A program made the translations under genes and the position numbers. DNA of 64,000 nt from Pseudomonadota bacterium (GTDB taxonomy: Bacteria > Pseudomonadota > Alphaproteobacteria > Micavibrionales > UBA2020). Below are positions 9,668-57,403 of this stretch, piece after piece; the first letter of the stretch is position 1; each line of letters starts with the position of its first letter. The notes under the pieces were generated by a model, which saw only the letters and a list, made by a program, of their open reading frames with translations, searched no databases and was not told the DNA's origin. The stretch lies in contig JAEXMB010000033.1 of NCBI GenBank assembly GCA_023444705.1, positions 581 to 64,580 on the forward strand. Reading direction: 5' to 3'.

Positions 9668-10207
9668 TCACGGGGCCGGCGGCGGCGATTTTTTGTCGCC
9701 AGGTGCCGGTCCGTCGCTGGCGGGCTTTTCGATGCGCTCGGGCGCGCTGACCATATTGAATCGGGGCGCGATCAAGGTGCGGGTTTCGCTCAAGCCTTCC
9801 TCCTGCTGGCGCAGACGGTCGCGCGCGCTGGCGATATCGGGCATTTCCTCCATCACGCGCAGGCGGCATTTGCGCAGCATCTCGATATAAGCTTCGTGGC
9901 GGTAGGGAATAAGCTGGTCGTCGATCTTGTCGTCAAACAACGTGCGCCCCTTGGTATTGGCGACGAAAAGATCGTCTACATGGGGCAAAACATGCGTCAG
10001 CCAGTCGTATTTCTGGTCCTGAATGGCGCGCTTGATGCCTGCGTGCAATAACGGCAGGCCGTCGCCGTTGCGCGCATGGACATCAGCACCCTTGGCGATG
10101 GTCATGTCAAAAAGCTTTTTGTCGCCGTTCTGCACGGCGGCAAACATCTCGCCGGTCATCAGGGCGATTTGCTTTTTCAGGCCTTCTTCGGTGACGGGGC
10201 GGTCCAT
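9668..10207 (-). CDS. small ankyrin-repeat protein (candidate effector)
   Basis: DKKLFDMTIAKGADVHARNGDGLPLLHAGIKRA fits the ANK consensus. Basic/Pro C-tail GDKKSPPPAP. Confidence 0.75.
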   Translation of the reverse strand: MDRPVTEEGLKKQIALMTGEMFAAVQNGDKKLFDMTIAKGADVHARNGDGLPLLHAGIKRAIQDQKYDWLTHVLPHVDDLFVANTKGRTLFDDKIDDQLIPYRHEAYIEMLRKCRLRVMEEMPDIASARDRLRQQEEGLSETRTLIAPRFNMVSAPERIEKPASDGPAPGDKKSPPPAP

Positions 10208-10484
10208 AGGGCGTTATCGGGATTCTATATGCTGTTAATATGCCATAATACATAACAGGTCAGCGTGCAGGAGTCGACCTTCTTTTCGCGCCTAGATGAT
10301 GCGCCGCAACAGCGCGGCGCAATAAAATATCATTGAAAAATCAGGAAAATTTAACCTGCAGAGGGCTCTTTTCCCCTTGCCAGCCGATGTAGCGGCGTAT
10401 AAGTTTCTTTCCGTATCTAAACCCGAGTCTTTTTATTTATGTCGCAGGCGCGGCGATCAGCACGCGCAGGCCGGAGTAACGACC

Positions 10485-11117
10485 ATGAAGGTATCGCAGA
10501 TTTTCAAAGCCAGTGCTGCAGCCGTTGCCATCGGCGGTGCCGGGTATGGCGGCTATGTCGCCGCCGATCATGCGCACCAGTATCTGGCGAAAACCCCGAT
10601 GCCCGCGCTGAGCGCAAGCGCGCGTGACCGCGCCAAGGACTACAGCCTGCGCTTTACCACCGTGCTGGCGCAGCAACAACTGCTCGACAACACCACGGAC
10701 GAGGAAGAAGCCGGCAACACCCTGTTTGAAGCCAAGCGCGAACTGGCGACCGATGCCGTGCTGGACAGCACGCTGAGCGAAGCCGACCTGTCGCGTCTGG
10801 CGCGCGACTTCAACGCCATCAGCGAAGACGACGCCGTGCGCTTTCGCTCCTACGCCTACGACCCGCAAACCATCGCGCGCCGCAACGAATGCCTGCGCGT
10901 CACCCCCGCCACCAACGACAAGCACGGAGCCGACCGCTTTGCCTACGCGCAGCGTGTTGAAACCTGCATGATCGAAATGACCGACCAGACTCCGGCGACC
11001 AATACCATTGCCGCGCGCATAGGCGGCATGATGGGCGGCGGCATGGCTTTCACCTTCCTGCTGGGCTTTTCCGCGCGCCGCCGCATTCACGGCGCCAAGG
11101 CACCCAAGGCCGGTTAA
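10485..11117 (+). CDS. hypothetical protein with N- and C-terminal TM segments
   Basis: GGAG lies 8 nt upstream of the ATG at 10485. Sequence MKVSQIFKASAAAVAIGGAGYGGYV...IGGMMGGGMAFTFLLGF, tail GAKAPKAG. Confidence 0.6.
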   Translation: MKVSQIFKASAAAVAIGGAGYGGYVAADHAHQYLAKTPMPALSASARDRAKDYSLRFTTVLAQQQLLDNTTDEEEAGNTLFEAKRELATDAVLDSTLSEADLSRLARDFNAISEDDAVRFRSYAYDPQTIARRNECLRVTPATNDKHGADRFAYAQRVETCMIEMTDQTPATNTIAARIGGMMGGGMAFTFLLGFSARRRIHGAKAPKAG

Positions 11118-11176
11118 GCGCGCCTTCATTGCGTGTTTGACATCATCACACTCTTCGCAAAGGATCCCGCGCCAAG

Positions 11177-12258: not shown

Positions 12259-12277
12259 TTATTTTCTTTGCTGTTTA

Positions 12278-12907
12278 TCAGGGCTTGGGCGGCGCTTTGG
12301 GCGCGGCAGTCTTTGGCGTGGCCTGATCGTCATTGGCGCGCTTGCGGCCAAAAATGTTGCTGAGGCTGATCGACGCAGCTTTGCGTTCAGGCTGTGGCGC
12401 GGATGTAGGCGCAGGCGCTGCCGGTGCAGCGTTGCCAGCCTTTGCCGCACGTACGGCATCGCGGCGCGCACGCCATGCGCTGGCGATTTCTTCCATCTTG
12501 TAAGCGGCGTAGCGCTTGCCGATTTCTTCCTTGAGGACGGGCAGCGTTTCTCCCTGCGCGCGTGCCCATATTTTTTTACCGCGCCATGCGGCAAAACCGC
12601 ACCCTGCGGCCAGCACGCCAATAAGGCCGGCACCGCTGGCCAGCGTCAGTGCGCCGCCAACAGCAAGCGCAATCCCGCCGCCTGCGGACAGCAGCACACC
12701 GCCAATCGCCGCCGCTGCCGCAACACCCGCAGCGCGCACATCGCGTTTGAAGGGGGCCACGGTTTTATACATGTCCTTGAGCGTTGCGATGATCCAGGTA
12801 TCAGGCGGCAGCAACGCTGAATCCGACGCGATGAAGGGCATGACCTTGCGTGCAAGGCGGCGCGAGGGATCAAGCTTGGCTGGCGTTTGCGTCGGCTGGG
12901 TCATCAC
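12278..12907 (-). CDS. Gly/Ala-rich bilobed-hydrophobic membrane protein (Inc-like architecture), hypothetical
   Basis: One roughly 50-aa hydrophobic block, AAGVAAAAAIGGVLLSAGGGIALAVGGALTLASGAGLIGVLAAGCGFAAW, followed by an A/P/K-rich tail ending APKAPPKP. Confidence 0.6.
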   Translation of the reverse strand: MMTQPTQTPAKLDPSRRLARKVMPFIASDSALLPPDTWIIATLKDMYKTVAPFKRDVRAAGVAAAAAIGGVLLSAGGGIALAVGGALTLASGAGLIGVLAAGCGFAAWRGKKIWARAQGETLPVLKEEIGKRYAAYKMEEIASAWRARRDAVRAAKAGNAAPAAPAPTSAPQPERKAASISLSNIFGRKRANDDQATPKTAAPKAPPKP

Positions 12908-12915
12908 ATCAATCC

Positions 12916-13878
12916 TTATTTCTTTTTATTGTCGGGCGCGCACGCTTTGGGCGCGGCGCGATGATCGCTCGGGTTATCGTTGGCGCTGTCGCTGTCGGGT
13001 TTTGCGCCCTGCGCGAAATCCGCGCGCGCGCTAAGCTGGCTGACAGGCGCTTTGCCCGTTTGCGCGGGCGGTGCCATCTCGCGGTTGGCAACCATCGCGG
13101 CGGCGGCTTTTTCCGCACGCGACACACGGTGCCAGCGGATCAGCGATTTGCTGCCGAAGTAAAGCCCGGCACATCCGCTGACGACACCCGCAACGGCCCA
13201 CAGCGCAACGAAAGACACGGCACTGCCGATCGCAACGACAGGCAGAACGGCCAGTTGCGCCGCCAGCACCCACGCACTCATGCCGGTGGTCAGCGCCGCA
13301 CCGCTCAGTGCCGTGGTGCCAAGCATCCATTTTTTCTGTTCGCGGATGAAGCGTTCGGTCACTTGCCAGATGCGTGTCTGCCCGACGGCCTTGACGGCCT
13401 TAAGCTCTGCAATCTTGTTGACGGTGCGATAGAACGGGCGGTCCGATGCCGCGGGTACGGGCGGCGGCGGTACGGACGGATCGGCCGTCTCGCCGTTCTT
13501 CATTGAATCATAAGCGGCGCGCATGCGGCCCAGAATAAAACGTGTGCCGGCAATGATGCCCACGGTTGCAACGCCCGCCACCACGGCAACGCCGGTGATC
13601 ATCGTCGCCGCCAGCATGAAAGGCAGCGTCATCGCATAGGCGCAGGCACCGGCCACCGTCAGCGCCGTCATGGCGGCACCCGAGCGCACCGCCATCATGT
13701 GCAGCCAGAAGGTATGGTCGCGGCTCAGCTCGTTCATGAAGGTATAGATCGTATTGAAGGCGCGCTTGGGCGAACGCAGCGAGGCCAGCAGCGATTTCAG
13801 CCAGCGGCGTTGCACGGCAGAATCGCCCGCAGCGGCTGGGGTCTGGTTTTCCGTTTGTGTTTCAGGCGTTTGCGTCAT
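12916..13878 (-). CDS. Gly/Ala-rich membrane protein with two bilobed hydrophobic blocks, hypothetical
   Basis: Blocks AMTALTVAGACAYAMTLPFMLAATMITGVAVVAGVATVGIIAG and LSGAALTTGMSAWVLAAQLAVLPVVAIGSAVSFVALWAVAGVVSGCAGLYFG. Basic tail APDNKKK. Confidence 0.6.
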   Translation of the reverse strand: MTQTPETQTENQTPAAAGDSAVQRRWLKSLLASLRSPKRAFNTIYTFMNELSRDHTFWLHMMAVRSGAAMTALTVAGACAYAMTLPFMLAATMITGVAVVAGVATVGIIAGTRFILGRMRAAYDSMKNGETADPSVPPPPVPAASDRPFYRTVNKIAELKAVKAVGQTRIWQVTERFIREQKKWMLGTTALSGAALTTGMSAWVLAAQLAVLPVVAIGSAVSFVALWAVAGVVSGCAGLYFGSKSLIRWHRVSRAEKAAAAMVANREMAPPAQTGKAPVSQLSARADFAQGAKPDSDSANDNPSDHRAAPKACAPDNKKK

Positions 13879-14401: not shown

Positions 14402-14403
14402 CC

Positions 14404-14577: not shown

Positions 14578-14596
14578 AACAGCCTCTATCAACAAC

Positions 14597-14640
14597 AAAA
14601 AGTCCCTGCAGGTCCATCGCTGCAGGGACTTTTTGTTGTT
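14597..14640 (+). terminator. rho-independent terminator
   Basis: AGTCCCTGCAG (14601-14611), loop GTCCATCG, CTGCAGGGACT (14620-14630), then TTTTGTTGTT. Confidence 0.85.
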
Positions 14641-15331: not shown

Positions 15332-17986
15332 ATGACCGATCACACTGGTTACACCGGCTACCGCTTTATGGTTGATGCCAAGACGTCGCGCCAATACGCC
15401 CTGCGCTATGTCGACGGCGCCCCCCAGCCCCCGGTGACCATCCACGCAACAGACGTGGCGGAAAGCAAACTCAAGCCCCATGAAACTGTTTTCGCCTTTG
15501 ACGACGAAATCCAGACCGAAAAGCGCGCCGACGGCGTCTATCTGTCGACCGTTGTCTGGCAGATGAAAGCCAACGCCAACGGCGATTTCGGCCAGGGCGC
15601 CGAAGGCAAGCGTTGCGCTGTTGAATACAAAGTCATCTTCAAGCCCGACGCCGAGCGCGAAGGTGCAGTGAACATCGAATACGTGCTGACCGATGAATCG
15701 CGCGCGGATCTTGATGAAAAAGGCTTCTCCGAAGACCTGCCGGAAATGTTCGTGGAAGAACTCGAACTCGACAACCCGGGCATCGACCGCGCACGCGGCA
15801 TCGTCAAGCCGGAAATCCTCTCCACCATCGCCTTCCCGCCGCATCACAACGGCAGCGCCACGATCGCGCGTTATAACGTCGAGCAAAACCCGCAGCCCGC
15901 GCCCAAGCCGGCCACTGTGAGCCAGCCCGCCGCCAATACCAATACCGCGCCGCGCCCGACCCCCGCGTTCCCCCGTCCGACGTCGACCACGTCGCCGCGC
16001 ACGCGCACTGTCGAGCGTCCGCGCGTTCCCGACAGCGCGATCGAGGCGATCATCAAGCAGTTCTGCGACGACCTCAGCGAAAAAGCCGCCAGCGGCAAGC
16101 TTGACCCCGTCGTTGGCCGCGATGGCGAAACCGATCAGGCGCTGAAAGTCATGAGCCGCCGTAAGCAGGCCAGCATGTGCTTCACCGGCGATGCCGGCGT
16201 GGGTAAAACCGCGATGTTCTCGGCCGTTGCGCAACGCCTGCACGACGATCGCGATAACCTGCCCGAAAGCCTGAAGGACGCGCGCGTTCTGGTGCTTGAC
16301 TTGCAGGCGATGAACGCGGGCGCGAAATTCCGCGGCCAGTTCGAAGAAAAGCTGAAACCGCTGATCGACGGCCTGAAAGAGCGCGAAGGCTACCTCAAAG
16401 GCCGCAAGGTTATCCTGGCGATCGACGAGATCCACAGCCAGCTGACCGCCGGTAAAGCCGAAGGCGGCTCTGACGCGGGCAACATGATGAAGCCCTTCCT
16501 GACCTCGCAGGGCATCTCCGTCATGGGCACCACCACGGCCGAAGAATACCGCAAGTACATCGAGAAAGACGGCGCGTTGTCCAGCCGCTTTGAACAACTC
16601 GTTGTCGGCGAGCCGAGCGCGAAAGACACCAAGCTCATCCTCAACAGACTGTGGCCGCTCTACCGCGATCACCACGGCCTGACGCAGGACCTGTCGGACG
16701 AAGACCTTGATTACATCGTCACCATGTCCAACCGCTACGCGCCCAACGAATCCCAGCCCCGCAAAGGCGAGAAAGTTCTCTCGACCGCAGCGGCTTCGGC
16801 TGAATTCCGCGGCTCGAGCAAGATCGAAAAAGAAGACATCATCTCCGCCGTTGCGCAGATGTCGAAACTGTCGGTCGACTTCCTCAACCAGAACGACCTC
16901 GAGCGTTTTGTGCAGATGGAAAAAGAGCTGCCGCAGAAAGTTCTCGGCCAGCCCGGCATCCAGAAAGTCGTCGACGGCCTCGTCGGTGCGCGCTCGGGCC
17001 TGAACGATCCCAACCAGCCCTGGGGCTGCTTCGTTCTGCAAGGTCCGACCGGTACCGGTAAAACCGAACTCTGCAAAGAGCTGGCACGTTACCTGTTCGG
17101 CACCGAGGAAGCGATGATCCACCTCAACATGGGTGAATACGCGCAAGAACATTCGGTCGCCCGCCTGATCGGCGCGCCTCCGGGCTATGTCGGCTTTGAC
17201 AGTGCCGAACCCGCCCTGACCGAAAAAGTCCGCCAGCGCCCCTATTCGATCGTCCTGTTCGACGAAATCGAAAAAGCGCACCCGAAAGTCTTTGACGTCC
17301 TGCTGCCCGTCCTCAACGACGGCAAGATGGAAGACAACCAGGGTAAAACCGTTCTGTTCAACAACTGCATCGTCGTCATGACCACCAACCTGGGTGCAAA
17401 AGACGCGATGGCGCTGGTGAAAAACGGCGGCACTGCAGGCATGGGCTTTGGCACCGAAACCAAGGCAAAAACGCCCGAAGAAATGCAGGACGATCTTGCC
17501 AAGGTCTACAAAAAGGCCCGGGGCGACTTCTTCCGCCCCGAAATGATCAACCGTATCGAGGAGCTGGGCGGTTTCGTGACCTTCCTGCCCCTGAGCCAGG
17601 TTGTCGTGTCCAAGCTGATCGACCGTGAAATCACCAAGGTCAGCGCGCGCCTGAGCAAAAACGACGGTGCAGGCCTGGCCGGTGTCAGCCTCGAGGTCGG
17701 CGAAGAAGTCCGCGCGAAACTGGCGAAAGACGGCTACGTGCCCGAAATGGGCGCGCGTCCGATGCGCAAAGTCATCCGCGAGCAGATCGCCAACCCGCTG
17801 GGCAAATGGCTGATGGTCAACAAGGAAGAGCTGATGACCTTCGTTGCCAAGAACGGCCCCGCGAAACTGGTCATCAACAAAGTCGGTGCCGATTTCGCAC
17901 CGAAGATCGAAAAGGCCGTCAGCAACACCAACGAAGTTGTTGCCAAGCCGGTCCGCAAAAAGGCAGCTGGCCCCAAACCGGGCTAA
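15332..17986 (+). CDS. atypical two-ring Clp/Hsp100 AAA+ ATPase (ClpA/ClpV-like, no long M-domain) with a non-canonical N-terminal domain
   Basis: D1 has Walker A FTGDAGVGKTAM and Walker B ILAIDEIH. D2 has VLQGPTGTGKTEL, IVLFDEIEKAHPKVFDVLLPVLNDG and sensor-2 GARPMRKVI. The first roughly 260 aa (MTDHTGYTGYRFMVDAKTSRQYALRYVDG... then a Pro/Thr-rich linker) do not resemble a Clp_N repeat. Start taken at ATG 15332, downstream of CAGGAG. Confidence 0.85.
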   Translation: MTDHTGYTGYRFMVDAKTSRQYALRYVDGAPQPPVTIHATDVAESKLKPHETVFAFDDEIQTEKRADGVYLSTVVWQMKANANGDFGQGAEGKRCAVEYKVIFKPDAEREGAVNIEYVLTDESRADLDEKGFSEDLPEMFVEELELDNPGIDRARGIVKPEILSTIAFPPHHNGSATIARYNVEQNPQPAPKPATVSQPAANTNTAPRPTPAFPRPTSTTSPRTRTVERPRVPDSAIEAIIKQFCDDLSEKAASGKLDPVVGRDGETDQALKVMSRRKQASMCFTGDAGVGKTAMFSAVAQRLHDDRDNLPESLKDARVLVLDLQAMNAGAKFRGQFEEKLKPLIDGLKEREGYLKGRKVILAIDEIHSQLTAGKAEGGSDAGNMMKPFLTSQGISVMGTTTAEEYRKYIEKDGALSSRFEQLVVGEPSAKDTKLILNRLWPLYRDHHGLTQDLSDEDLDYIVTMSNRYAPNESQPRKGEKVLSTAAASAEFRGSSKIEKEDIISAVAQMSKLSVDFLNQNDLERFVQMEKELPQKVLGQPGIQKVVDGLVGARSGLNDPNQPWGCFVLQGPTGTGKTELCKELARYLFGTEEAMIHLNMGEYAQEHSVARLIGAPPGYVGFDSAEPALTEKVRQRPYSIVLFDEIEKAHPKVFDVLLPVLNDGKMEDNQGKTVLFNNCIVVMTTNLGAKDAMALVKNGGTAGMGFGTETKAKTPEEMQDDLAKVYKKARGDFFRPEMINRIEELGGFVTFLPLSQVVVSKLIDREITKVSARLSKNDGAGLAGVSLEVGEEVRAKLAKDGYVPEMGARPMRKVIREQIANPLGKWLMVNKEELMTFVAKNGPAKLVINKVGADFAPKIEKAVSNTNEVVAKPVRKKAAGPKPG

Positions 17987-21127: not shown

Positions 21128-21433
21128 ATGAACACCATGTCAGCTTCTAAAAAACATACGCCGGCGTATACCCCCTATACCACGCGCCCCGTGCTGCCGG
21201 CCGGGCTGGCGGCGTTCTTCAATGACGTTGCACCGCAGGGATCCATCCTGCCCGCGCGCAAATGCACCACCCCCGCCGAGCGGCCGTCTGCCGCGCCTGC
21301 CATGCCTTATACGACGCATGGCAACGAGGTCAGTCAGATGGCCGAGCTGCGCATCCGCCAATGGATCGTCCAGCAGGAACAGGATTTGCGCAAACAGCAC
21401 CACCAGCGCCTGTTCGGTCAGCCCAAGGGCTAA
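21128..21433 (+). CDS. phage early-region hypothetical protein
   Basis: 101-aa ORF. No motif recognised. Confidence 0.45.
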   Translation: MNTMSASKKHTPAYTPYTTRPVLPAGLAAFFNDVAPQGSILPARKCTTPAERPSAAPAMPYTTHGNEVSQMAELRIRQWIVQQEQDLRKQHHQRLFGQPKG

Positions 21434-44713: not shown

Positions 44714-45826
44714 TCAGCGCCCGAAACGCGGTGGTGCCTTGGGGCCGACGAATTTCTTTTCCTCAATCAGGGCACGGTGCGCCTTCTCGAAATGGTCGCG
44801 CAGCCGGAAAGATTCTTCGCTCTTCATGAAATCGTAAAGCTCGCGATGGTTCTGCTGGCTGACAAGGTCAGCGGCGGTTTGCCCGCTTTTGTTTTGCGCC
44901 AGCGCATCAGCACCCGCGACCAAAAGCTCGATCGCAATTTCGTCATAACCGCGTCGCGCCGCGGCCATCAATGCTGTTTCGTCATACATGTCAGGCATCG
45001 GCGCATCCACCGTGGCGCCTGCTGCCAGCAAAATTTTCACGCAATCAATCTGCTTTTTGATCACGGCGGTATGCAACGGTGTATGGCCGCTGGCATTGCG
45101 TGCATCAATATCGACACCATGATCGATCATGGCCTGCAAAACAGCGATACGCCCGTCCGCCGCCGCCAGATGGAACGGCGTCTGCCCTTCGTTATTCCTG
45201 CATGTCGCATCAGCACCCGCCTGCAACAGCGCAACGGCATGATCGGAGGTATTGCGCCCCGCCGCCAGATGCAAGGCCGTCGCGCCGTCCTTGGTACGGC
45301 GCAGTTCAACCAGCGCACCGGCATCAAGCAAGGCCGCAATCATATCCTCGCGCGGGGCCGACAATGCCGCCAGCAAGGGCGTATCGGCACTGATGTCCTT
45401 GTTGACCAGAAGGCCGCCGGTGTTCACACCCATGCCACGGCCTGTGCGTAACAAGACGCCAAGCGCTTCGGGCTTGTTGGCATCCACCGCATACAGCACG
45501 GCGTTAAAATCACCCGTGACGATGCTTGCACCAAGGTCGCGCAGGCAGGCGACGGTTTCACTATCGCCGTCGCTGATCGCATAGGCCAGCGCGGGCAGAC
45601 CTGCGGCGTTTGGCATATCGGGTACCGCGCCCAGCGTTTTAACCGCCTCGACGATGCGGGCCTTGCCTGCCTTCTGACGGCACAATTCGTGCAAATAGGT
45701 ATTGCCTTCGGACGTAACAGGCTCGTTGACCTGTTCAGGCAGAGGGCGCGGCACAGTGACCGCCGCCGTCTCGGGGGCGGTATCGGGGGCGGTGGTCTCT
45801 GCCGGTTTGTTGTCTTCTTCTTGCAC
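44714..45826 (-). CDS. ankyrin-repeat protein, candidate effector
   Basis: GQTPFHLAAADGRIAVLQAMIDHGVDIDARNASGHTPLHTAVIKKQIDCVKILLAAGATVD. Confidence 0.9.
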   Translation of the reverse strand: MQEEDNKPAETTAPDTAPETAAVTVPRPLPEQVNEPVTSEGNTYLHELCRQKAGKARIVEAVKTLGAVPDMPNAAGLPALAYAISDGDSETVACLRDLGASIVTGDFNAVLYAVDANKPEALGVLLRTGRGMGVNTGGLLVNKDISADTPLLAALSAPREDMIAALLDAGALVELRRTKDGATALHLAAGRNTSDHAVALLQAGADATCRNNEGQTPFHLAAADGRIAVLQAMIDHGVDIDARNASGHTPLHTAVIKKQIDCVKILLAAGATVDAPMPDMYDETALMAAARRGYDEIAIELLVAGADALAQNKSGQTAADLVSQQNHRELYDFMKSEESFRLRDHFEKAHRALIEEKKFVGPKAPPRFGR

Positions 45827-45869: not shown

Positions 45870-47111
45870 TCAGCGCGGCTTTGAAGGGTAAAAACCCCCG
45901 CGCCCGCGTCTGGTGCGCACGGGTGCCGCGCGCATATTTCTTCTGCCGCGGCGCAGTTTGGCAGAATCCGGCCATTTGCGCTGTGCGTCCATAACGATCT
46001 TGCGCGTCATCTGCTGCATCGGCGCCTGGCACACCATATCGGGTGTGCGCATTCTGCTGTCGGCGATCGTCGGGTCAGCACCCGCATCAAGCAAGGCGAT
46101 CACCGTGTCGCGGCGGTTATGGTGCGCTGCCAGCCACAAGGGCGTCTGGCCCAGGTGATTGCGCGCATTGAGGTCATGCGGCGCCAGCGCCAGCACGCGC
46201 AGGAACAGATCATGGCGCATGCCGCGCGCCGCGATATGCAGCAGTGTGGTGCCATCATTGCGTCTGGCCTGTGGCGGCACGCCCGCCGCCAGCAAATAAT
46301 CAAACGCCTGCACCCAGCCTTTCTCTGCCGCGAGCATCAGCAAGGTTTCCCCGCCCGCGCTGGCGGTTTGCAACATATCCGCCCCCGCATCATGCAGACG
46401 GCGCAGCAAATCAGCGCTTTCAACCATGCTGGTGCGGTGGCAGATCAGGAATTGCACCGGTGTCTGCCCGTCGCTGCCGCGGGCATTGATGTTGATCCCG
46501 TAGTCGATCAGCACATCAAGAAGATCCGCGCGTTGCGCCGCCAGCACGGCGCGCAAAGTATCAATGCGCAGGCCTTTTCGCGCATATGTCGTGTGGACTG
46601 CCAGCGCCTGCGGACTGCGCAACAGCAGGCGCAGGATTTCCGGCGTGCTGTCCGCCGCCAGATGAAAGGCATTCATCTCGTTACGGTCGATGTCATAGGC
46701 CGCCAGTGCGGGGTTGGCGCCGTAATGGAGCAGCCATGCCACCGCTTTTGCATCGCCCGCTATCACCGCCTGATGCAACATGGTCAAACCGCGCGGACCA
46801 TAAGCGTCGATATCTGCCCCGTGGTCGAGCAACATGACCGCACTGCCGCTTTGCCCCGCACGCAACGCCGCATGCAACGGCGTCAGGTGGCTTGCGCACC
46901 GCGCATCGGCGTCACAACCCGCGCGCAGCAGCGGTTCGATCAGCGCCGTACAGCCGCGCCGCGCTGCCACATGCAAAACGCTTTCACCGTTGTCATAGCG
47001 ATAGCTTGCCACATCGCCACGCTCTGCAGGCGCAAGCGCCTGCCATATGGCCATGATATCATCAGCACTCTGGCTTGTCAGTGCGCGCGCAAACGCCGCC
47101 ATAGTATTCAT
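45870..47111 (-). CDS. ankyrin-repeat protein, candidate effector
   Basis: GESVLHVAARRGCTALIEPLLRAGCDADARCASHLTPLHAALRAGQSGSAVMLLDHGADID. Confidence 0.9.
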   Translation of the reverse strand: MNTMAAFARALTSQSADDIMAIWQALAPAERGDVASYRYDNGESVLHVAARRGCTALIEPLLRAGCDADARCASHLTPLHAALRAGQSGSAVMLLDHGADIDAYGPRGLTMLHQAVIAGDAKAVAWLLHYGANPALAAYDIDRNEMNAFHLAADSTPEILRLLLRSPQALAVHTTYARKGLRIDTLRAVLAAQRADLLDVLIDYGININARGSDGQTPVQFLICHRTSMVESADLLRRLHDAGADMLQTASAGGETLLMLAAEKGWVQAFDYLLAAGVPPQARRNDGTTLLHIAARGMRHDLFLRVLALAPHDLNARNHLGQTPLWLAAHHNRRDTVIALLDAGADPTIADSRMRTPDMVCQAPMQQMTRKIVMDAQRKWPDSAKLRRGRRNMRAAPVRTRRGRGGFYPSKPR

Positions 47112-48547
47112 GGCTGGCGGCCGCCCGGCCCGTAATGCCCACGAAACAGCGGTTTGACGTCACGGCGCAGCGCTTCGGCAAGTATGGGAACGGTCTGCTC
47201 TTTGGCGCGCATATTGACTTGCGCGTAATACATCGCTGAATGCCCGTTGTTATCGAGCAGGCGCGGATTGGCCCCCGCCTGTAACAGCTCGCGCATCGTG
47301 TCGCCCTGCCCCAATGCTGCCGCAATCATCAGCGGCGTGCGCGCATCATGGTCATGGCGCGCGTTGGGGTCCGCACCGGCGGATAAAAGATTGGTGATTT
47401 CATGCAGGCTCGACCCTTCGATCGCCAGCATCAACGCGGTGGCGCCGTCGCGGCTGCGTACATTCACACGCGCGCCATAGCGCAAAAAGACCGACAGCGT
47501 TGCTGTCACGCCGCCAAAAGACATCAGGCGGTGCAACGGCGTTGCACCGCTGTGCGGGTCGTGCGCATTGACATCCGCACCCGCTTCGATCAGCAGGCGC
47601 GCGATCTGCGCGCGCACGTCATCGTTCATGCTGCGAATACCCGCCAGATGCGCAAGCGGGGTCGTCTGCAATTGTTTAAGCACCCCCTGGCCCGTTGCCA
47701 TCACCGGACGGCAGGCATCTGCCCCCTTGGCCAGCAGGACCGCAACCAATGCCGCGTCAGCGCGGTTGATCGCCAGCAACAGCGGCGTCATGCCGTCATC
47801 GCGCGCAAGATTGACCAGCGCGCCGTCATCGATCATGGCATCGACCAATGCCGCATCCGCGCGCATGACCGCAAGGTGGAACAGCGTGCGTCCCTCGCGG
47901 TCGCCGGGCAGGCGCGCGTTAAGGTCGGCGATAATTTCGCGCTGGCGCAACAAGCTTTGCGCGGCAACGGTTTTTTTGGCATTGAGAGCGGCCATCATCG
48001 GCGTGACGTGCAGCGCACTTGGCGTGCGCAAATCCACGCCCGCCGCGGCAAAGGCCAGGATGACATCACCCATGTCTTTTTCGCAGGCGCGGTGCAACAG
48101 GTCTTGCGTGGCCTGCATATTGTCGGGGCAACCGCCACATGTGATCAGCGTGGCGGCGGCGGCGGCCTTGCCGAAATGAATCGCGTCTTGCAGCGGTGTG
48201 CGGCCTGCATCGTCAGCGATACCACGGCGCACATCCGCACCGGCGCGCGCCAGCAGGGCGATCATGTCGGCGCGGTCAGCGCGCGCTGCGATATGGATGG
48301 CGCTTTCGCCGCTGGCGTTGGTCGCATTGGGGGACATTCCCGCCGCCAGTTGCGCGCGCACCCCTGCGCTATCACCGTTTTTCACCATGCGAAAGAAGGC
48401 ATCAACATCGCTTTGCGGGGTCAGCGCGGCGGTTTTCAAACGGTTGAACAGACTGCCCAGCACGCCTTCACTTTTTGGTTGCGCGTCGTCACCACCCGAA
48501 GGGGCGGCACTGTTTTTCGGGTCTGGCGGTCGTGGTGTAAATGACAT
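47108..48547 (-). CDS. ankyrin-repeat protein, candidate effector
   Basis: GESAIHIAARADRADMIALLARAGADV and GATPLHRLMSFGGVTATLSVFLRYGARVNVRSRDGATALMLA. ATGA-coupled to the next gene. Confidence 0.9.
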   Translation of the reverse strand: MSFTPRPPDPKNSAAPSGGDDAQPKSEGVLGSLFNRLKTAALTPQSDVDAFFRMVKNGDSAGVRAQLAAGMSPNATNASGESAIHIAARADRADMIALLARAGADVRRGIADDAGRTPLQDAIHFGKAAAAATLITCGGCPDNMQATQDLLHRACEKDMGDVILAFAAAGVDLRTPSALHVTPMMAALNAKKTVAAQSLLRQREIIADLNARLPGDREGRTLFHLAVMRADAALVDAMIDDGALVNLARDDGMTPLLLAINRADAALVAVLLAKGADACRPVMATGQGVLKQLQTTPLAHLAGIRSMNDDVRAQIARLLIEAGADVNAHDPHSGATPLHRLMSFGGVTATLSVFLRYGARVNVRSRDGATALMLAIEGSSLHEITNLLSAGADPNARHDHDARTPLMIAAALGQGDTMRELLQAGANPRLLDNNGHSAMYYAQVNMRAKEQTVPILAEALRRDVKPLFRGHYGPGGRQP

Positions 48548-48706: not shown

Positions 48707-49237
48707 TTATGGTGCGGGTTTTTGGCCAGCACCTTTGAATGCCGCCTGCGGCGCGCGCAAGGTCACTTCTTTTTTAAGCGCCATGTCTTCTTCACCTTGC
48801 GGATCGGGCAAGGCCGCCAGCAAGCGCGTGCTGAGTTTCTTTTGCCCTTCGTTAAGGTCCCATCCCTCGGATTTGCGTTTACGCATTTGCGTTAGCAGAA
48901 TTTCAAGCGCGCTTTCCTTGCCGAGAGTAAGGTTCGGGTCCGCGCCACGGTCCAGCAAGGATTGCGCAGCACTCAGATGGTCGTTGCGGACATAAGAAAT
49001 CAAAAACGTATCGCCGTCAGGCTTGCCGTTGACACTGGCATTGATGTCCGCGCCTGCCGCCAGCGCAAGATCGATCATATCCCAGTGGTGGGTGGCGTGG
49101 CCCTGCCGCAAGACCGCCTGCGCATCCGCACCTTTATCAAGCGCCTGTTTAAGCATCGTCAGATCCTTGGTTGCAAAACAAACATCAAGCGCAAGGGCAA
49201 GCGCGCGCTTCACATTTTCGGGGTTGGCGGTATTCAT
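48707..49237 (-). CDS. short ankyrin-repeat protein, candidate effector
   Basis: I chose the start at ATG 49237, which is ATGA-coupled to the upstream HExxH gene. Sequence LKQALDKGADAQAVLRQGHATHHWDMIDLALAAGADINA. Tail GAGQKPAP. Confidence 0.7.
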   Translation of the reverse strand: MNTANPENVKRALALALDVCFATKDLTMLKQALDKGADAQAVLRQGHATHHWDMIDLALAAGADINASVNGKPDGDTFLISYVRNDHLSAAQSLLDRGADPNLTLGKESALEILLTQMRKRKSEGWDLNEGQKKLSTRLLAALPDPQGEEDMALKKEVTLRAPQAAFKGAGQKPAP

Positions 49238-50229
49238 GCGACCCTCATGCTGAAACTGTAGCCGGACATTTTGGGGTCGCGCGCCCTTTGCCGCGGAACG
49301 CGGATATTCGACAGGCGTAAAATATCCTGCCACTCCTCGCTGTGCCGCGCCTGGTCCTTGATGAATTCTTTGACCGGCGGATAGTTCAAGAACCGCTTTC
49401 CTGCCTTGATCACGTCGGCGTTATCTGCGGATGCATGCATGACCTTGGCCGTTTCGCGGCAGAACAGCGCATACGCCTCCTCATCACGGCCATAGAGCGC
49501 CCTGACAATGTTGTGCGGCGTTTCATAGCGTTGGTGATATGCTTGCGCCGCATCGTTGAACTTCATGGCAAGCAGATGGTGCGATATGCGCGTATGCATA
49601 TGTCTGCCCACGATATCGTGCGCCAGCGCCGCTGTTTCGTCGAGCGATAGCGCGCTGATGTCGTGCTTGCACGCATGCCTGCGCACAGCCGCCAGAATAT
49701 CGTCGGTATAATGAATAGGCGAGGTACCAAGCACCAGCGTACTGGCCTTGTTCGCGTATTTGAAAAAGTCGCTATCAAGACCAAAGCGCTGGATGTGGCG
49801 CAGGGCCGCAAAAGCATCGGCACGGCATTCGCCTTCATGGCCGCCGATCATCCCGCGCTCCATCACCTGATGGCCGATTTCGTGGTCGAGTACATAGAGC
49901 GTGCGCATTTCAAGCGTATAGCGCGGCGTGAACACCCCGGGCATCTCGCGCAACAGGCCGATCATCTTGATCCCCGCCACGCCGCCCAGTACGGTGGGAT
50001 GATACGCCATGCCCGCAGCGTTGCGTTTTTTGATATATGCGCTTTCCTGATGGATGCGTGCGCGCAGGGCACGCGTTTTCTCGCTCAGGTCATCGGCGAT
50101 CGCGCTCGAGATAAAAACAGGCGCGTCGCTGTCGGTGACGAAAACGACCAGACGCTGCAGACGCTCGGGAAAGCTCTGACAGGCATCGCGCAGGGAGTGC
50201 TGCACTGTGGTGTGAAGATCGTTTTGCAT
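49234..50229 (-). CDS. HExxH-motif protein (putative zinc metallopeptidase), paralog 1
   Basis: YVLDHEIGHQVMERGMIGGHEGECRADAFAALRHIQRFG. Alignable along its whole length with 50385..51341. Confidence 0.7.
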   Translation of the reverse strand: MQNDLHTTVQHSLRDACQSFPERLQRLVVFVTDSDAPVFISSAIADDLSEKTRALRARIHQESAYIKKRNAAGMAYHPTVLGGVAGIKMIGLLREMPGVFTPRYTLEMRTLYVLDHEIGHQVMERGMIGGHEGECRADAFAALRHIQRFGLDSDFFKYANKASTLVLGTSPIHYTDDILAAVRRHACKHDISALSLDETAALAHDIVGRHMHTRISHHLLAMKFNDAAQAYHQRYETPHNIVRALYGRDEEAYALFCRETAKVMHASADNADVIKAGKRFLNYPPVKEFIKDQARHSEEWQDILRLSNIRVPRQRARDPKMSGYSFSMRVA

Positions 50230-50384: not shown

Positions 50385-51341
50385 TCACGCACCGTGTTTT
50401 TTCATGGCTGGCGTTGGGGCTTTCGAAAGGTCGGCGATGCGCCGCCACGCAGGGTCGGCTTTGGCACGGGCAGTGATAAAATCATGCACTGGCGGGAAAT
50501 TTAAAAAGCGTTGTCCGGCACTTATAACACGCGCATCGGCAGGGTGGGCACGCATCACGCTTGCCGTTTCACGGCAGAAAACTTCATATGCGTCATGGTC
50601 CCTGTCATAGAGCGCGTCAACAAGCTCTTTCTTGCCGCCACAATGGCGCACGGCCATGCGCGCAGCTGGCCTGAATTTCTTTGCCAAGCGGTGAATGTCA
50701 GCAGAGCCAACAGGCAACGAGCGGACAAGACGGTCGGCTAAACGCGCAGTTGCCGCAAGCGGTAAGCCGCTAATATCATTGTCGCGTGCATAAGCGCGCA
50801 CCGCTTCCATGATGTCAGTCGTGTAATGGACAGGCGATGTCCCCAGCACGACCGAATGCGCACGCGTCATCAAGACAAAATAATCCGTGTCAAAGCCATA
50901 GCGCTGAAGATGGCGCAACGTTGCAAAAGCATCCGCGCGGCATTCGGCTAAATAACCGCTGACCATCCCCCGCGGCACAACCTGATGACCGATCTCATGG
51001 TCAAGGACGTAAACGCTGCGCATGTCCTTGGTATAGCGTTTGTTGAAAACGCCTGACACATCGCTGTGTACACCAATCATCTTCACCATATGCCCTGCAA
51101 CACGCATCGGATGATAGGCCATGCCAACACAGTTGCGACGCTTGATATAGGCTGTTTCCCGCGCGATCACACGACTGACTTCCTGCGTCGCCGAAGACAG
51201 CTTTGCCGCTGTTGCAGGTGCGAGATATACCGGCGTTTTTGCATCGGTCATAAAAAGAAACAACGTGCGCAACTGCCGCGGAAAAGCGTCATAAGCTTCG
51301 CGGGCGGTTTGTTCGAAAATGGCGCCGAGCTCTTTTTGCAT
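50385..51341 (-). CDS. HExxH-motif protein (putative zinc metallopeptidase), paralog 2
   Basis: YVLDHEIGHQVVPRGMVSGYLAECRADAFATLRHLQRYG. Further shared blocks are ETAYIK(K/R)RN..GMAYHP and VLGTSP(I/V)HYT.DI..AVR. Confidence 0.7.
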   Translation of the reverse strand: MQKELGAIFEQTAREAYDAFPRQLRTLFLFMTDAKTPVYLAPATAAKLSSATQEVSRVIARETAYIKRRNCVGMAYHPMRVAGHMVKMIGVHSDVSGVFNKRYTKDMRSVYVLDHEIGHQVVPRGMVSGYLAECRADAFATLRHLQRYGFDTDYFVLMTRAHSVVLGTSPVHYTTDIMEAVRAYARDNDISGLPLAATARLADRLVRSLPVGSADIHRLAKKFRPAARMAVRHCGGKKELVDALYDRDHDAYEVFCRETASVMRAHPADARVISAGQRFLNFPPVHDFITARAKADPAWRRIADLSKAPTPAMKKHGA

Positions 51342-51434: not shown

Positions 51435-51959
51435 TCAATTGGGTTTTCGCGGCGGCGGTTTTGCACCACTCTTGAGGTTCTGGCGGCCCGTCATCATCAC
51501 GCGCAGGCGCTCGGCGGCGGCGGGGTTGTCGTCCCACAACGCCATGTAATCGCGTGCGGTCCAGCCCTGCTTGTCGGCGATATCGTCACGTGCGCCCGCA
51601 TCCTTGAACAACGCGATGATGTCCGCACGCGTGCGCAGGCCGCCCGACACGGCCGCCGCATGCAGCGGCGTCCAGCCGTGATCGTCCACCCGCGCAACGT
51701 CGGCACCGGCCTTGAGCAACAGACGCACAATATCGCTTTCACCCCAATAGGCTGCTTCGTGCAGGGGTGTGGTGCCGCCATCCGCCGCCTGATTGGGATC
51801 GGCGCCGCGGCGCAAACGGTCGCGCACTTCACTGCGGTTTCCCGCACGCACCGCACGATAGAGCGCGCTTTCACCGCGCGCATTGCGCGGGTCGCGCCCG
51901 CCATGCGTCATGCGGTTAAAGCGGTCGGTGATGGTGTCAAGAAACGAAAGTGGTTTCAT
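51435..51959 (-). CDS. ankyrin-repeat protein, candidate effector
   Basis: AGAGGA RBS before ATG 51959. Sequence GTTPLHEAAYWGESDIVRLLLKAGADVARVDDHGWTPLHAAA. Tail AKPPPRKPN. Confidence 0.85.
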   Translation of the reverse strand: MKPLSFLDTITDRFNRMTHGGRDPRNARGESALYRAVRAGNRSEVRDRLRRGADPNQAADGGTTPLHEAAYWGESDIVRLLLKAGADVARVDDHGWTPLHAAAVSGGLRTRADIIALFKDAGARDDIADKQGWTARDYMALWDDNPAAAERLRVMMTGRQNLKSGAKPPPRKPN

Positions 51960-54560: not shown

Positions 54561-54865
54561 GGACCCTGATATTTCGCGGAGGATAGACAGCTTGCGCCAG
54601 TCTGCACGTCCCGGTCTTTAATGTATACAGCCGCGTCCATACGGGGCACCTCGCCGGATTGTTTACAGAATCTGGTATTTTTCCATTTTCTGCGTGCAAC
54701 GCGTCAATTTTTTGCATTGATTGCGCCTGCGGTTATCCAAACGTAGCAAGATTACACTTTTCCGCCTTTTTTCGTTTTTACGGGGTTGTCCACAGGTCGC
54801 CTGCTTGCTACGGTTTTGCGGTATTCAAAACGGGACCCGCCGACGTGAAAAAGTTTTTCAACGCC

Positions 54866-56284
54866 ATGTCCGACCGCACCAGCCGCGATCTTGACCGGAT
54901 CGGCAGCAAGGGTCTGACGCGCCTGCAACAGGCCGCGGATGAAAACGACACCGACCGCATCCGCCTGCTGTTGCGCCGCAAAGCCGACATCAACGAAACC
55001 GGCCTGTGCGGCGAAACCGCCCTGCACCGCGCCGCGCGCCACAACAACTACAGCGCCGCGCGCCTGCTGGTCGATATGGGTGCCGATGTCAACCTGCCTG
55101 ACGCGCAGGGGCAAACAGCGCTCCACAATGCCGTCCTGCATGGCAACACGATGATCGTCGCCCGCCTGATCGAAGCCGGCGCAGACGTCAACATCGCCGA
55201 TCACGAGGGCCGCACCGCCATGCATATGGTGCCGCGCGGGTGCGAGGATATTTTCACCCAGCTGGTGGCGCAGGGCGGCGACGTCAACGCGCTCGACAAG
55301 CAAGGCTATCCGCCGCTCAACTACCATCTGCGCCACGACAGGCTGGTCACGGCCATCATCAATCTTGGTGCCGACCCCAATCTTTCGACGACACAGCCAT
55401 CGCCACTGGTCACCGCACTGAGCATCCCTTTGCTGGCCACACATCCCGCAATCATCAGAAGCCTGCTGGCAGGCGGCGGCGACGTTAACGCGCGCAGTGC
55501 GTCAACGGGCGAACCGCTGATCCACCTTGCCGCACGCAGCGGCCAAAACGCCCTGCTGGTCGAAGCCCTGGCGCGCAAAGCCGACGTCACCGCAACCGAT
55601 CCCGCGGGCATGACCGTCGCGCATGCGCTGGCGCAACTGCCCCAGCCCGACCTGATGCGCCTTGTACTGTTGCGCGCGCCCGATCTTGCGCGCACACGCG
55701 CCAAGGACGGCACCACGCCGCTGCATCTGGTCGTGCAGCATCTGACGCAAACGCCGTTGCGCGGTGCCGAAACCCATGTCGCAACGCTGGTGCAACTGGC
55801 GCAACTGCTGATCGAATACGGTGCCGATCCTTCGACCGCCACCACCAACGGCACGACCCTGCTGCACGAGGCCACGACGCGCAACATGCCGGGCTTCATT
55901 GATTTCCTTGCCAAGCATAAGGCGGATTTCAACCTGCGCGACCAGCAGGGCAACGCCGCGCTCAATGTCGCGATCACCGCGCGCAATGTGGAACTGCTCG
56001 ACCGCTTGCTCGACCACGGCGCCGATCCGGACCTTACGGATGCACGCGGCTGGACAGTGCTTGACCGCCTTGCTGAAAAGAAAGACCGCGAAAGCCCGAT
56101 CGTGCAACGCCTGATCGTGGCGGGCGGGCAATACAACAAACAGTTGCCCCTCTACCCCGATCTGATCCGTCCGCGCAAAAACACAGCTCCGGCCCCCGCC
56201 AATGACACCGCGCCCAAGCCAGCGCCCGAGACTATTGTCTCGCCGATCAAAAAGATCATCAAGCGCCAGCCACCAACAAATTAA
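54866..56284 (+). CDS. ankyrin-repeat protein (about 12 repeats), candidate effector
   Basis: GETALHRAARHNNYSAARLLVDMGADVNLPDAQGQTALHNAVLHGNTMIVARLIEAGADVN. I chose the start at ATG 54866. Tail KIIKRQPPTN. Confidence 0.9.
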   Translation: MSDRTSRDLDRIGSKGLTRLQQAADENDTDRIRLLLRRKADINETGLCGETALHRAARHNNYSAARLLVDMGADVNLPDAQGQTALHNAVLHGNTMIVARLIEAGADVNIADHEGRTAMHMVPRGCEDIFTQLVAQGGDVNALDKQGYPPLNYHLRHDRLVTAIINLGADPNLSTTQPSPLVTALSIPLLATHPAIIRSLLAGGGDVNARSASTGEPLIHLAARSGQNALLVEALARKADVTATDPAGMTVAHALAQLPQPDLMRLVLLRAPDLARTRAKDGTTPLHLVVQHLTQTPLRGAETHVATLVQLAQLLIEYGADPSTATTNGTTLLHEATTRNMPGFIDFLAKHKADFNLRDQQGNAALNVAITARNVELLDRLLDHGADPDLTDARGWTVLDRLAEKKDRESPIVQRLIVAGGQYNKQLPLYPDLIRPRKNTAPAPANDTAPKPAPETIVSPIKKIIKRQPPTN

Positions 56285-56392
56285 TACAAAACAACAACTT
56301 AACCGTTCACCGTGCGGCCAATCCGCTGTTGACGCAGTTCTGCTTTATGACTAAACTCTGTTTTACCTAATAACAAAGCAGATTCTTGCCCC

Positions 56393-57403
56393 ATGTCATC
56401 CAGCGAAAACGACAGCACCGGCGGCTCCGCGCGCAGTGCCTATAACAGTGCCGCCATAAGCGGCGACGACGGCACGACCAGCGTTGACCCCCTGGCCGAT
56501 CTGCCGCCGCGCGTGCGCGACTTTTTGCGCAATGCCGATGTCGCGCAACCGCTCAAGGATCTGTGCCTGCACATTCTCCCTGCTGCCGATTTTGCAACTT
56601 TCAAAAGACGTCTTGATCGCGGTGACTTTGACGCCCACCTGACCTGTGATGCGCACCCAATGGGCGGTCTGCTTGCGCAACTGGCGGCGGCCCCCAAGGA
56701 ACTTGGCAACGACTGGCTACAAGCCGTGGCACAACGCGAGGCTTTCGCCGTCGATGCGCTCAGCGTCCCCTACTATTACACGGGAAGTTATTACAGCAGT
56801 CACATCAAGGACTATACCGGCCAAAGCGTGTCACAACGCCCGCTTGGCAGCTGGATGCTCGGCCATCGCAGCATGAAATACCCCGATCTCGCGCAATTCT
56901 GCGCGCGCCTGCTTGCACATGAATACAAAGCCAATGACGTATCGCAACCGATCGCCCATCACGCGATTTACGGCACGCCGACGCTTGAATACCTGCGCGA
57001 CTTCGCCGACAAGGCAGGCACGCTTGACTTCATCAACGTAAAAAACGCCAATGGCGAAAGCGTTTTTTACCGCCTTGCAACCAATAAAAACCTCTATAAC
57101 CACGCATCGACGCTGAATGTGCTGAGCTGGCTGCTGGAGCGCAAGCCCGAGCTGATCCACACCACCGACGATGCCGGCTGGACGGCGCTTGACCGCTATG
57201 TCCTGCAGATGACGGTGCAAAGCGGCGTCTCGCAAGCCGTCACCACCGAAAGCGGTATGCTGCGCCTGTTGCTTGCATCGGGCGCGCAGTTCCGCCGGCA
57301 AACGCCGCCGGGCATGTCACTGGTGGACTATCACAATAATCAGCAGACGACCACGCTGCTCGGCAAACCGGCAGCGGCAGGCCCGATCAAACGCAAACCC
57401 TAA
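56393..57403 (+). CDS. hypothetical protein with 2-3 C-terminal ANK-like repeats, candidate effector
   Basis: NANGESVFYRLATN...LNVLSWLLERKPELIHTTDDAGWTALDRYVLQ. Tail AAGPIKRKP. Confidence 0.6.
   Translation: MSSSENDSTGGSARSAYNSAAISGDDGTTSVDPLADLPPRVRDFLRNADVAQPLKDLCLHILPAADFATFKRRLDRGDFDAHLTCDAHPMGGLLAQLAAAPKELGNDWLQAVAQREAFAVDALSVPYYYTGSYYSSHIKDYTGQSVSQRPLGSWMLGHRSMKYPDLAQFCARLLAHEYKANDVSQPIAHHAIYGTPTLEYLRDFADKAGTLDFINVKNANGESVFYRLATNKNLYNHASTLNVLSWLLERKPELIHTTDDAGWTALDRYVLQMTVQSGVSQAVTTESGMLRLLLASGAQFRRQTPPGMSLVDYHNNQQTTTLLGKPAAAGPIKRKP

Follow-up and report, generated by a model that had tools for sequence, protein, structure and literature searches.

Does a set of short basic C-termini mark the substrates of a bacterial secretion system? 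The question is raised by a 64,000-nucleotide stretch of an alphaproteobacterial contig (JAEXMB010000033.1 of assembly GCA_023444705.1, positions 581 to 64,580; hereafter the window), in which many ankyrin-repeat (ANK) and orphan proteins, encoded among genes of a Dot/Icm-type or type IVB secretion system (T4BSS), end in tails rich in Lys, Pro and Gly. A sequence-only reading of the window had suggested that these tails may be a translocation signal peculiar to the lineage. The answer tentatively favoured here is that they may constitute a lineage-specific, disordered and C-terminus-anchored basic Pro/Gly tag, which would mark ANK and orphan proteins for recognition from the cytoplasmic side by the co-inherited Dot/Icm-type system. 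Genes are designated below by their lower coordinate in the window, and the features discussed are collected in Table 1.

Enrichment of lysine, proline and glycine at protein C-termini

All C-termini quoted in the sequence-only reading are present in the sequence, the start of the gene given there as 54866 moving to 54845 with the same stop and tail, and the tails of 3991 and 4242 lying outside the range that had been given for them. Its claim that the tails are non-random and C-terminal also holds. When the last 10 residues of the 74 open reading frames (ORFs) of the window are compared with protein interiors, Lys is enriched 2.47-fold, Pro 2.01-fold and Gly 1.51-fold, while Asp, Met and Cys are depleted. 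The dipeptide KP occurs within the last 10 residues of 12 of the 74 proteins, against an expectation of 1.35 +/- 1.1 and a maximum of 7 in 3000 interior-window draws, and KP or PK (KP|PK) in 16, where interior windows would give 2.3. Window proteins end in Pro in 15.3% of cases, compared with 4.1-5.2% in controls. K/P-rich windows inside proteins are not elevated (3.1% versus 2.6-2.9% in controls).

The guanine-plus-cytosine (GC) content of the window is about 60%, which favours Pro, Gly, Ala and Arg codons, and compositional bias had been left as a live alternative. GC-matched controls, namely gyrB loci from other Alphaproteobacteria retrieved with GyrB as bait, speak against it. With one gene caller throughout, KP|PK tails are found on 22% of proteins in the window and 23.6% in related loci from metagenome-assembled genomes (MAGs), but on only 4.9% of 829 genes from proteobacterial gyrB loci with GC>=0.58 and 4.5% of 751 from Chloroflexi loci; GC composition is therefore not the cause. 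The most enriched residue, Lys, is moreover AT-encoded. Terminators with an A-tract and GC-stem could in principle encode peptides of the K-K-P-G-G-F type, but the 3' ends of tail genes show no excess RNA folding energy over other genes (p=0.21) and no excess of hairpins, no nucleotide motif common to the tail-coding DNA was found, and the Lys, Pro and Gly codons of the tails are used as in gene interiors. The tail is therefore a protein-level feature, and a terminator or DNA-repeat origin is ruled out by the folding, motif and codon tests.

The gene calls were made with a home-made, self-trained codon-usage caller, which found 76 genes in the window in agreement with independent calls on the source contig (ENA ERZ24927784 NODE_143, 97,955 bp, of which there is also an assembly from SRR13366722); the C-termini are fixed by stop codons alone and match those calls. 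About 100 kb of the source genome were covered in all. GyrB, encoded just beyond the window, is 88-94% identical to that of other metagenome contigs and 75-79% identical to that of MAGs deposited as 'Micavibrio sp.' or 'Alphaproteobacteria bacterium', and by these identities the source organism is an uncultured relative of Micavibrio. A clade-specific protein alignment used as bait returned further loci of this clade and no Micavibrio aeruginosavorus locus, RNase J used as bait for core loci of the lineage retrieved no relatives, and megablast searches of plasmids and phages with the window gave short clpB-like matches only, or none.

Anatomy and conservation of the tails

The core of the putative tag is a C-terminus-anchored stretch of Lys/Arg, then Gly, then Pro, in which acidic residues are almost absent; Pro is commonest at -1, -3 and -4, and the peaks of K/R lie at -2 and from -6 to -11. 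These features are clearest in the orthologues of the ANK protein 54845, of which a search recovered 83 at 34-100% identity. Pro occupies positions -1, -3 and -4 in 46%, 47% and 45% of them, K/R position -2 in 37% and positions -6 to -11 in 25-40%, and Gly positions -4 to -9 in 20-27%, while D/E stay near zero (0-7%) across the last 9 positions. KP|PK falls within the last 10 residues of 53 of these 83 orthologues but of only 4 of 36 other ankyrin matches (p=7e-8). The last 12 residues average only 16% identity, so that in this family it is the composition of the tail, rather than its sequence, that is conserved. An AlphaFold 2 (AF2) model of 54845, built with 62 orthologues, gives an ankyrin solenoid up to about residue 430 with a predicted local distance difference test (pLDDT) score above 90 and a segment of 45-50 residues beyond it at 46-57; the tail, which carries PAPANDTAPKP...IKKIIKRQPPTN, is thus predicted to lie in a disordered segment behind the solenoid.

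Conservation extends to other families. All orthologues of the Clp-like ATPase 15332 have K/R/P-rich C-termini, as do the membrane-protein families of 12278 (K/P tails in 8/8 members), 12916 (P/K-rich tails in 8/8 members) and 10485, whose orthologues end ...GLRRRKQEPKPGA and ...GRKRKPNGPQNA. The orthologue of 56393 in the relative with 94% GyrB identity ends ...VLAKPSAVKRAP.

Two further elements are present in some carriers. One is a hydrophobic F/W/L-x-L element ('GFKL'), which stands just upstream of the basic core or replaces it. Some orthologues end with the F/W-x-L element (FKL), and in others it is extended by K/P (WSLKPPKH), as in the operon at 58612-62245, the orthologues of whose proteins end ...RWSLKPPKH, ...RWSLSPNAPNKKAGGKP and ...RYKLGL. 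In relatives, tandem small ankyrin genes (Pfam) directly beside dotD-dotC-dotB-icmT encode ends of the form ...K/R-P-G-G-G-[FL]-x-L, and proteins ending G[FL]x[LF]-COOH number 26 in the clade against 0.37 expected and 0/1,122 controls. The other element is an [A/P]-x-N-D-[N/D] box, which in some carriers lies 5-25 residues upstream of the basic end. An ad hoc regular expression for 'hydrophobic-x-L + KP' gave too few matches for use.

Distribution among protein classes

The carriers proposed are the ankyrin-repeat proteins, orphan proteins and Clp-like AAA+ ATPase of Micavibrio-related MAGs with a chromosomal Dot/Icm-type T4BSS. At least 8 clear and 4 weaker ankyrin-repeat genes (Pfam) are found in the window. 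A C-terminus-anchored matrix of 12 positions was derived from 75 orthologues of 54845 in other genera, the window's own genus being excluded, and its thresholds were set as percentiles of 1,873 control C-termini. With it, 12 of the 74 window proteins pass the 99th percentile of the controls, where 0.74 would be expected, and 21 pass the 95th (3.7 expected). The higher group includes ATPase 15332 and 48707, and the top score of the window, 17.5, belongs to 9668, a small protein which BLAST ties to an ANK family and which is placed where the relatives have tandem small ANK paralogues. The proteins 44714, 45870, 47108 and 4242 all exceed the 95th percentile, with 3991 just under it.

Above the 95th percentile stand 8/11 ANK proteins but 2/26 non-ankyrin proteins of known function (Fisher p=1.6e-4), and 7/21 orphans outside the prophage but 2/14 within it. 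Classes (ANK, known-function, orphan) rest on Pfam; a simpler class comparison on precomputed Pfam labels only is weak (p=0.03-0.37), and direct Pfam scans reclassified 42806, 48707, 9668, 56393 and 60740 as (weak) ankyrin proteins. The predicted enrichment of accessory and ANK proteins over core proteins in the window is borne out by the matrix on the fuller labels and is weak in the simpler comparison. A similar bias appears with the S4TE thresholds (PMC3814349), at least 3 basic residues and a net charge of at least +2 in the last 25 residues, which are reached by 11/12 window ANK proteins compared with 9/32 known-function proteins (28%) and 27% of 1,122 control proteins.

Most ANK and orphan carriers have neither a signal peptide nor a transmembrane (TM) segment, and the description of the carriers as accessory proteins is apt in so far as the tails concentrate on ANK and orphan proteins of this cytoplasmic type among T4BSS genes; it has to be widened to the membrane proteins 10485, 12278 and 12916 and to 42369, which has a Sec-type signal peptide. 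A phage head protein, 35418 (...LAQKPQA), had been cited as a caveat, since it ends similarly. It scores below the control 95th percentile, and [KR]P-type tails occur on 3/25 prophage genes, the background rate, which weakens the objection.

ATPase-baited public loci are syntenic with the window at 4.5-22 kb (IcmT, DotB, DotC, DotD, SLT, a protein of ~300 residues, tandem small proteins, a GNAT-like protein, ATPase, HIT) and therefore provide no independent 'core genome' controls. In gyrB neighbourhoods of clade members most core proteins are without a tail (MreD, RodA, DnaN, RecF, GyrB, TK, DUF1428, DUF3126, TetR), as are FlgK, DotB and DotD of the clade. The expectation that core proteins lack the tail is borne out for these and not for PBP2, CYTH, one FGase and, weakly, RNase J.

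The type IVB secretion genes

The window contains T4BSS genes and an SLT gene (2.6-8.5 kb), the Clp-like AAA+ ATPase gene, an S24 repressor gene and a prophage (24-42 kb). The T4BSS gene order is kept in at least 12 related MAG loci, and further T4BSS genes are present as DotI in the flank of the window and DotH and DotG in relatives. No DotL or DotM was recognisable in the window, its flank or related loci, and DotI used as bait led to two more T4BSS clusters, in which DotL and DotM were not recognisable either. VirB/D4 genes were not found in the ~100 kb covered, and type IVB is the only secretion system seen here. In three genomes dotI is adjoined by 4-5 tandem paralogues of 405-590 residues, which have a hydrophobic segment at the N-terminus, match no Pfam family and may form an uncharacterised T4BSS-associated family.

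A Clp-like AAA+ ATPase beside the secretion genes

The Clp-like ATPase 15332 also ends in a tail and had been listed as a caveat for that reason. Its identity as a housekeeping ClpB is rejected. It lies below the NCBIfam cut-offs (534/1232 bits for ClpB, 487/993 for ClpA and 448/885 for ClpV), has no Clp_N match and lacks an M-domain, residues 425-528 of E. coli ClpB having no counterpart in an alignment with the PDB structure. Its synteny with dotD-dotC-dotB-icmT is conserved across at least 12 MAGs, and because of this position the ATPase is probably a secretion-linked protein and not a core counter-example; the caveat loses weight.

The N-domain (residues 1-205, ~205 residues) is also found as stand-alone proteins, themselves K/P-tailed. 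Its AF2 model is a mostly beta fold (pLDDT 88.6) for which a fold search gave no PDB match. Many of the N-domain proteins start MA-NDN-like. Like ClpV (TssH), the Clp/Hsp100 ATPase of type VI secretion systems (T6SSs), 15332 is a double AAA+ ATPase of the ClpB family, has an N-domain of a specialised kind and is genetically linked to a secretion system. Unlike ClpV it is linked to a T4BSS rather than a T6SS, stays under the ClpV cut-off and has an N-domain without a PDB match.

Comparison with known secretion signals

Positively charged C-terminal signals are known from VirB/D4 or type IVA secretion systems, as in Agrobacterium VirE2/VirF, the Bartonella Beps and Anaplasma/Ehrlichia substrates, and the tails share with them a short, hydrophilic, unstructured and net-positive C-terminus on effector-like, often ankyrin, proteins. 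They differ in being rich in Lys, Pro and Gly rather than Arg, with Pro at -1, -3 and -4, in having a type IVB apparatus as neighbour and in lacking a BID-like domain. The Arg-rich consensus of VirB/D4 signals is R-x7-R-x-R-x-R, which the tails do not follow, only 45870 (...RTRRGRGGFYPSKPR) resembling it.

With the Dot/Icm systems of Legionella and Coxiella the locus shares the kind of machine, having homologues of DotB, DotC, DotD, IcmT, DotI, DotH and DotG, and a signal-like disordered C-terminal region of 20-40 residues. A hydrophobic residue at -3/-4, as in Legionella and Coxiella signals, is present in the FKL/FKF-ending proteins 58612, 60740 and 21940 (at -3 in the FKL-ending subset) and in the 26 GFxL ANK paralogues of relatives, and absent from the K/P-ending tails. 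An E-block (EExxE) or Glu-rich stretch is not found in the last 30 residues, the window tails being net positive, and they are opposite in charge to Legionella signals, with D/E near absent from the last 9 residues, and far more uniform. In position, disorder and charge the tag resembles a T4SS C-terminal signal. By the features compared, it is neither of the Arg-rich VirB/D4 type nor of the acidic E-block Dot/Icm type, each of which fails in at least one defining feature tested.

Basic patches on DotM, with R196/R197/R217/R314 in Legionella, bind the acidic, Glu-rich signals of Dot/Icm substrates (PMC5802825), and Meir et al. proposed for other species a co-evolution of DotM interfaces with tails that are not acidic (PMC5802825). 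The earlier suggestion of a signal-like chemistry stands in part: the charge of 11/12 ANK proteins is that expected of T4SS (type IV secretion system) substrates by S4TE, while the only system seen is of type IVB, whose known signals are acidic. A literature search found no description of a Dot/Icm-type system, of such a tail or of a linked Clp-like ATPase in Micavibrio relatives, which is absence of evidence only, and found nothing specific on T4BSSs in Micavibrionales or on unfolding requirements.

Possible functions of the tails

We infer, tentatively, that the exposed basic tail would serve as a recognition element at the cytoplasmic face of the T4BSS, read by a coupling complex or an accessory factor, in the manner of the positively charged signals that VirB/D4 substrates of Alphaproteobacteria bear at the C-terminus and with a chemistry unlike that of the acidic Legionella E-block. 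Several observations weigh against this. The known T4BSS signals are acidic and Glu-rich (PMC5802825) and the tails opposite in charge, and neither DotL nor DotM was recognised. In each of the three relatives checked PBP2 ends in a basic K/P tail, at a C-terminus expected to be periplasmic; CYTH and one FGase in relatives are tailed, and RNase J weakly so. The membrane proteins 10485, 12278 and 12916 and the Sec-signal protein 42369 are unlikely to be cytoplasmic T4SS substrates, and the signal peptide of 42369 argues against a purely cytoplasmic T4SS signal. Motif discovery with a zero-or-one-occurrence-per-sequence expectation-maximisation model (ZOOPS-EM) returned only a diffuse x-[KR]-[KP]-P-[GA]-[PG] of ~5 bits, which is low in information. 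The window sample is small, and the families in relatives are non-independent; the related loci are mutually syntenic, so that the independent unit is the family and not the gene. A C-terminal sorting anchor, such as a PEP-CTERM-like one, was considered for the membrane proteins: a TM helix followed by an RRR(K) cluster and a K/P tail is found in the 10485 family only (orthologues in L004, L005 and L015), with no signature motif or Pfam match there.

The main rival, unlikely but to be taken seriously, is that the clade generally tolerates or favours short basic Pro/Gly disordered C-terminal extensions, perhaps because they aid solubility, touch acidic membranes or nucleic acids, or shield the C-terminus from proteases, without a dedicated role in export, the C-termini of ANK and orphan proteins being simply freer. 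This would account for tails in all compartments and classes (TM and Sec-signal proteins, PBP2, CYTH, FGase, the AAA+ ATPase), for the compositional, low-information motif, for a difference between window orphans and known-function proteins that is not significant by simple criteria (p=0.27-0.37) and for the KP|PK tails on 12% of known-function proteins, somewhat over the 4.9% baseline. It leaves the strong class bias between ANK and known-function proteins unexplained, however, and sits poorly with the untailed state of most clade core proteins, the near-background frequency in prophage orphans (2/14), which are equally unconstrained, the lack of a rise in K/P-rich windows inside proteins, and the strict C-terminal anchoring kept over 83 diverged orthologues.

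Improbable, by comparison with the favoured tag for T4BSS recognition, is a host-directed short linear motif that acts only after delivery into a eukaryotic host, as a proline ligand of SH3, WW or EVH1 domains or a basic nuclear or membrane patch, and is not itself an export signal. The carriers are ankyrin and Sel1-type eukaryote-like proteins, the tails contain PxxP-like and K/R clusters (KPPPRKPN, APKAPPKP, IKRKP, PSKKK), and they are disordered, as is usual for such motifs. Such a motif could lie away from the extreme C-terminus, to which the pattern is in fact anchored; on inspection most tails do not follow any one SH3 or EVH1 consensus, and a tag on a bacterial AAA+ ATPase and on inner-membrane proteins would be hard to account for.

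Similarly small is the chance that the tails direct proteins to the co-encoded Clp-like AAA+ ATPase or to an adaptor, for unfolding or turnover independently or upstream of secretion; their ND[ND] box and basic end would then be comparable to the adaptor-binding half of SsrA tags. Within their last 40 residues, 20/286 clade proteins have the module ND[ND]...[KR]P, where 0.77 would be expected, compared with 1/1029 and 0/697 in controls. Proteobacterial SsrA tags begin in a similar way to '[A/P]ANDD/ANDN'; that of Caulobacter is AANDNFAEEFAVAA (PMC9393093 and PMC1233412). The resemblance to SsrA and its SspB-binding half thus lies in an [A/P]-A-N-D-[N/D] box near the C-terminus of several tail proteins and in the nearby Clp-family ATPase, whose gene keeps synteny with the T4BSS and whose N-domain is novel. 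The differences are that the tag is genome-encoded, not added by transfer-messenger RNA (tmRNA), and that the box is missing from most window tails. ClpX requires the hydrophobic LAA-type end of the SsrA tag, and no LAA or VAA end is present here. The ATPase is itself tagged, no SspB or other adaptor was identified, no tmRNA gene was found in the window or 30 loci, and in sequence of low complexity the resemblance could have arisen by chance. A bolder form of the idea, and a long shot in the same degree, is that the ND[ND] box and K/P end would be degron-like handles read by the beta-rich N-domain of the ATPase, which would unfold stably folded ankyrin effectors and pass them on to the Dot/Icm channel.

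An origin in artefact, be it through composition, chance, wrongly called ORFs, or a DNA repeat or terminator that overlaps the 3' ends, is effectively excluded by the control frequencies, the matching gene calls, the DNA-level tests and the retention of the tails in orthologues at 34-80% identity.

Features of the locus

Besides the tail carriers of Table 1, two adjacent paralogous orphans without a Pfam match (49234-50229 and 50385-51341) lie among the ankyrin genes, one ending ...SKAPTPAMKKHGA and the other ...YSFSMRVA. The tail module of the prophage contains an opposite-strand insertion, like a moron cargo gene: a Sel1-repeat gene (33332-33982, + strand) whose product has a signal peptide.

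Table 1. Features of the window and of related loci. Positions are nucleotides of the window unless a related locus (L) is named; positions in brackets are those of the segment encoding the C-terminus; scores are those of the C-terminal matrix.
Feature	Position	Strand	C-terminus	Remarks
TcpQ-like	2606-3829	-		precomputed Pfam
Two paralogous small orphans beside icmT	3991-4245, 4242-4487	+	...NFTISKPKGQQA (4207-4242), ...SGFKLSKPAG (4449-4484)	
IcmT	4505-4777	-		precomputed Pfam
DotB-like ATPase (T2SSE)	4799-6019	-		precomputed Pfam
DotC/TraI-like	5998-7290	-		precomputed Pfam
DotD	7268-7801	-		precomputed Pfam
SLT lytic transglycosylase	8009-8497			adjoins T4BSS genes
Small weak-ankyrin protein	9668-10207	-	...GDKKSPPPAP (9671-9706)	Pfam Ank_4 E=5e-4
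Membrane protein	10485-11117	+	C-terminal hydrophobic helix, then RRRIHGAKAPKAG (11079-11114)	
Two-TM orphan	12278-12907	-	RANDDQATPKTAAPKAPPKP (12281-12340)	ND[ND] box and K/P end; score 14.1
Four-TM orphan	12916-13878	-	SANDNPSDHRAAPKACAPDNKKK (12919-12987)	score 6.4
Divergent Hsp100/Clp-like double AAA+ ATPase	15332-17986	+	...VSNTNEVVAKPVRKKAAGPKPG	~55-residue extension past D2-small (17816-17983); synteny with dotD-dotC-dotB-icmT in loci L001-L018, L179
[A/P]-x-N-D-[N/D] box upstream of basic end	12281-12340, 12919-12987, 17921-17983, 56190-56281; clade loci			on ATPase, two TM-protein families, ankyrin proteins
Orphan	21128-21433	+	...QRLFGQPKG (21395-21430)	
Orphan with Pro-rich C-terminal region	21940-22425	-	...KQPPAPPKPPTPPAPPARKPPKDNGDGFKF (21943-22032)	K/P stretch and terminal G-F-K-F; score 14.0
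Orphan with N-terminal Sec-type signal peptide	42369-42815	-	...SGAAKPSKKK (42372-42407)	score 5.1
Three tandem ankyrin-repeat genes	44714-45826, 45870-47111, 47108-48463	-	...FVGPKAPPRFGR, ...RGRGGFYPSKPR, ...HYGPGGRQP	Pfam Ank
Small ankyrin protein	48707-49237	-	...AAFKGAGQKPAP (48710-48745)	Pfam Ank E=3.4e-5
Ankyrin protein	51435-51959	-	...NLKSGAKPPPRKPN (51438-51473)	Pfam; score 11.2
Ankyrin protein, 479 residues	54845-56284	+	predicted disordered tail, residues 431-479 (56135-56281)	solenoid residues 20-430
Weak-ankyrin orphan	56393-57403	+	...LLGKPAAAGPIKRKP (57365-57400)	
Operon of three orphan/weak-ankyrin genes	58612-62245	-	58612 ...RPDKFKL, 59547 ...PCFKLAPAGGSNGA, 60740 ...SNGQFKL	hydrophobic C-terminus variant
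Tandem small ankyrin paralogues	L004:3186-7088, L005:3153-7058, L015:4226-8079 and others		G[FL]xL ends	likened to window proteins 58612, 60740, 21940
dotI-adjacent tandem paralogues	window 2-2430 and L085:10001-15316; L170:3791-9742; L186:2433-9623			
PBP2	L167:547-2481, L168:676-2661, L169:2389-4317, L175, L176, L178, L180		...APKKQAPRNKRKKRQ	strongly basic K/P/R C-terminal extension

Significance for type IVB secretion and for Micavibrio relatives

Type IVB signals are notoriously diffuse, and effector prediction is poor beyond Legionella and Coxiella. The tail signature described here is unusually crisp for a type IVB system and directly testable. Micavibrio aeruginosavorus, a bacterial predator, has been reported to be without a T4SS (PMC3189940); a Dot/Icm-type system with many ankyrin genes is now placed in its relatives, and a Clp-like ATPase that is probably secretion-linked has been brought to light alongside the tails. 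Were the ATPase to act on the tails, a type IV secretion system would have an unfoldase dedicated to it, a 'ClpV-like' one, and its substrates would bear a defined tag. Should the tails prove to be the tag tentatively proposed for recognition by the T4BSS, effectors of uncultured Micavibrio-related bacteria could be listed simply, a compact candidate tag for engineering would be at hand, and the lineage would offer a natural test of whether the interface of the coupling complex co-evolves with the chemistry of the tail.

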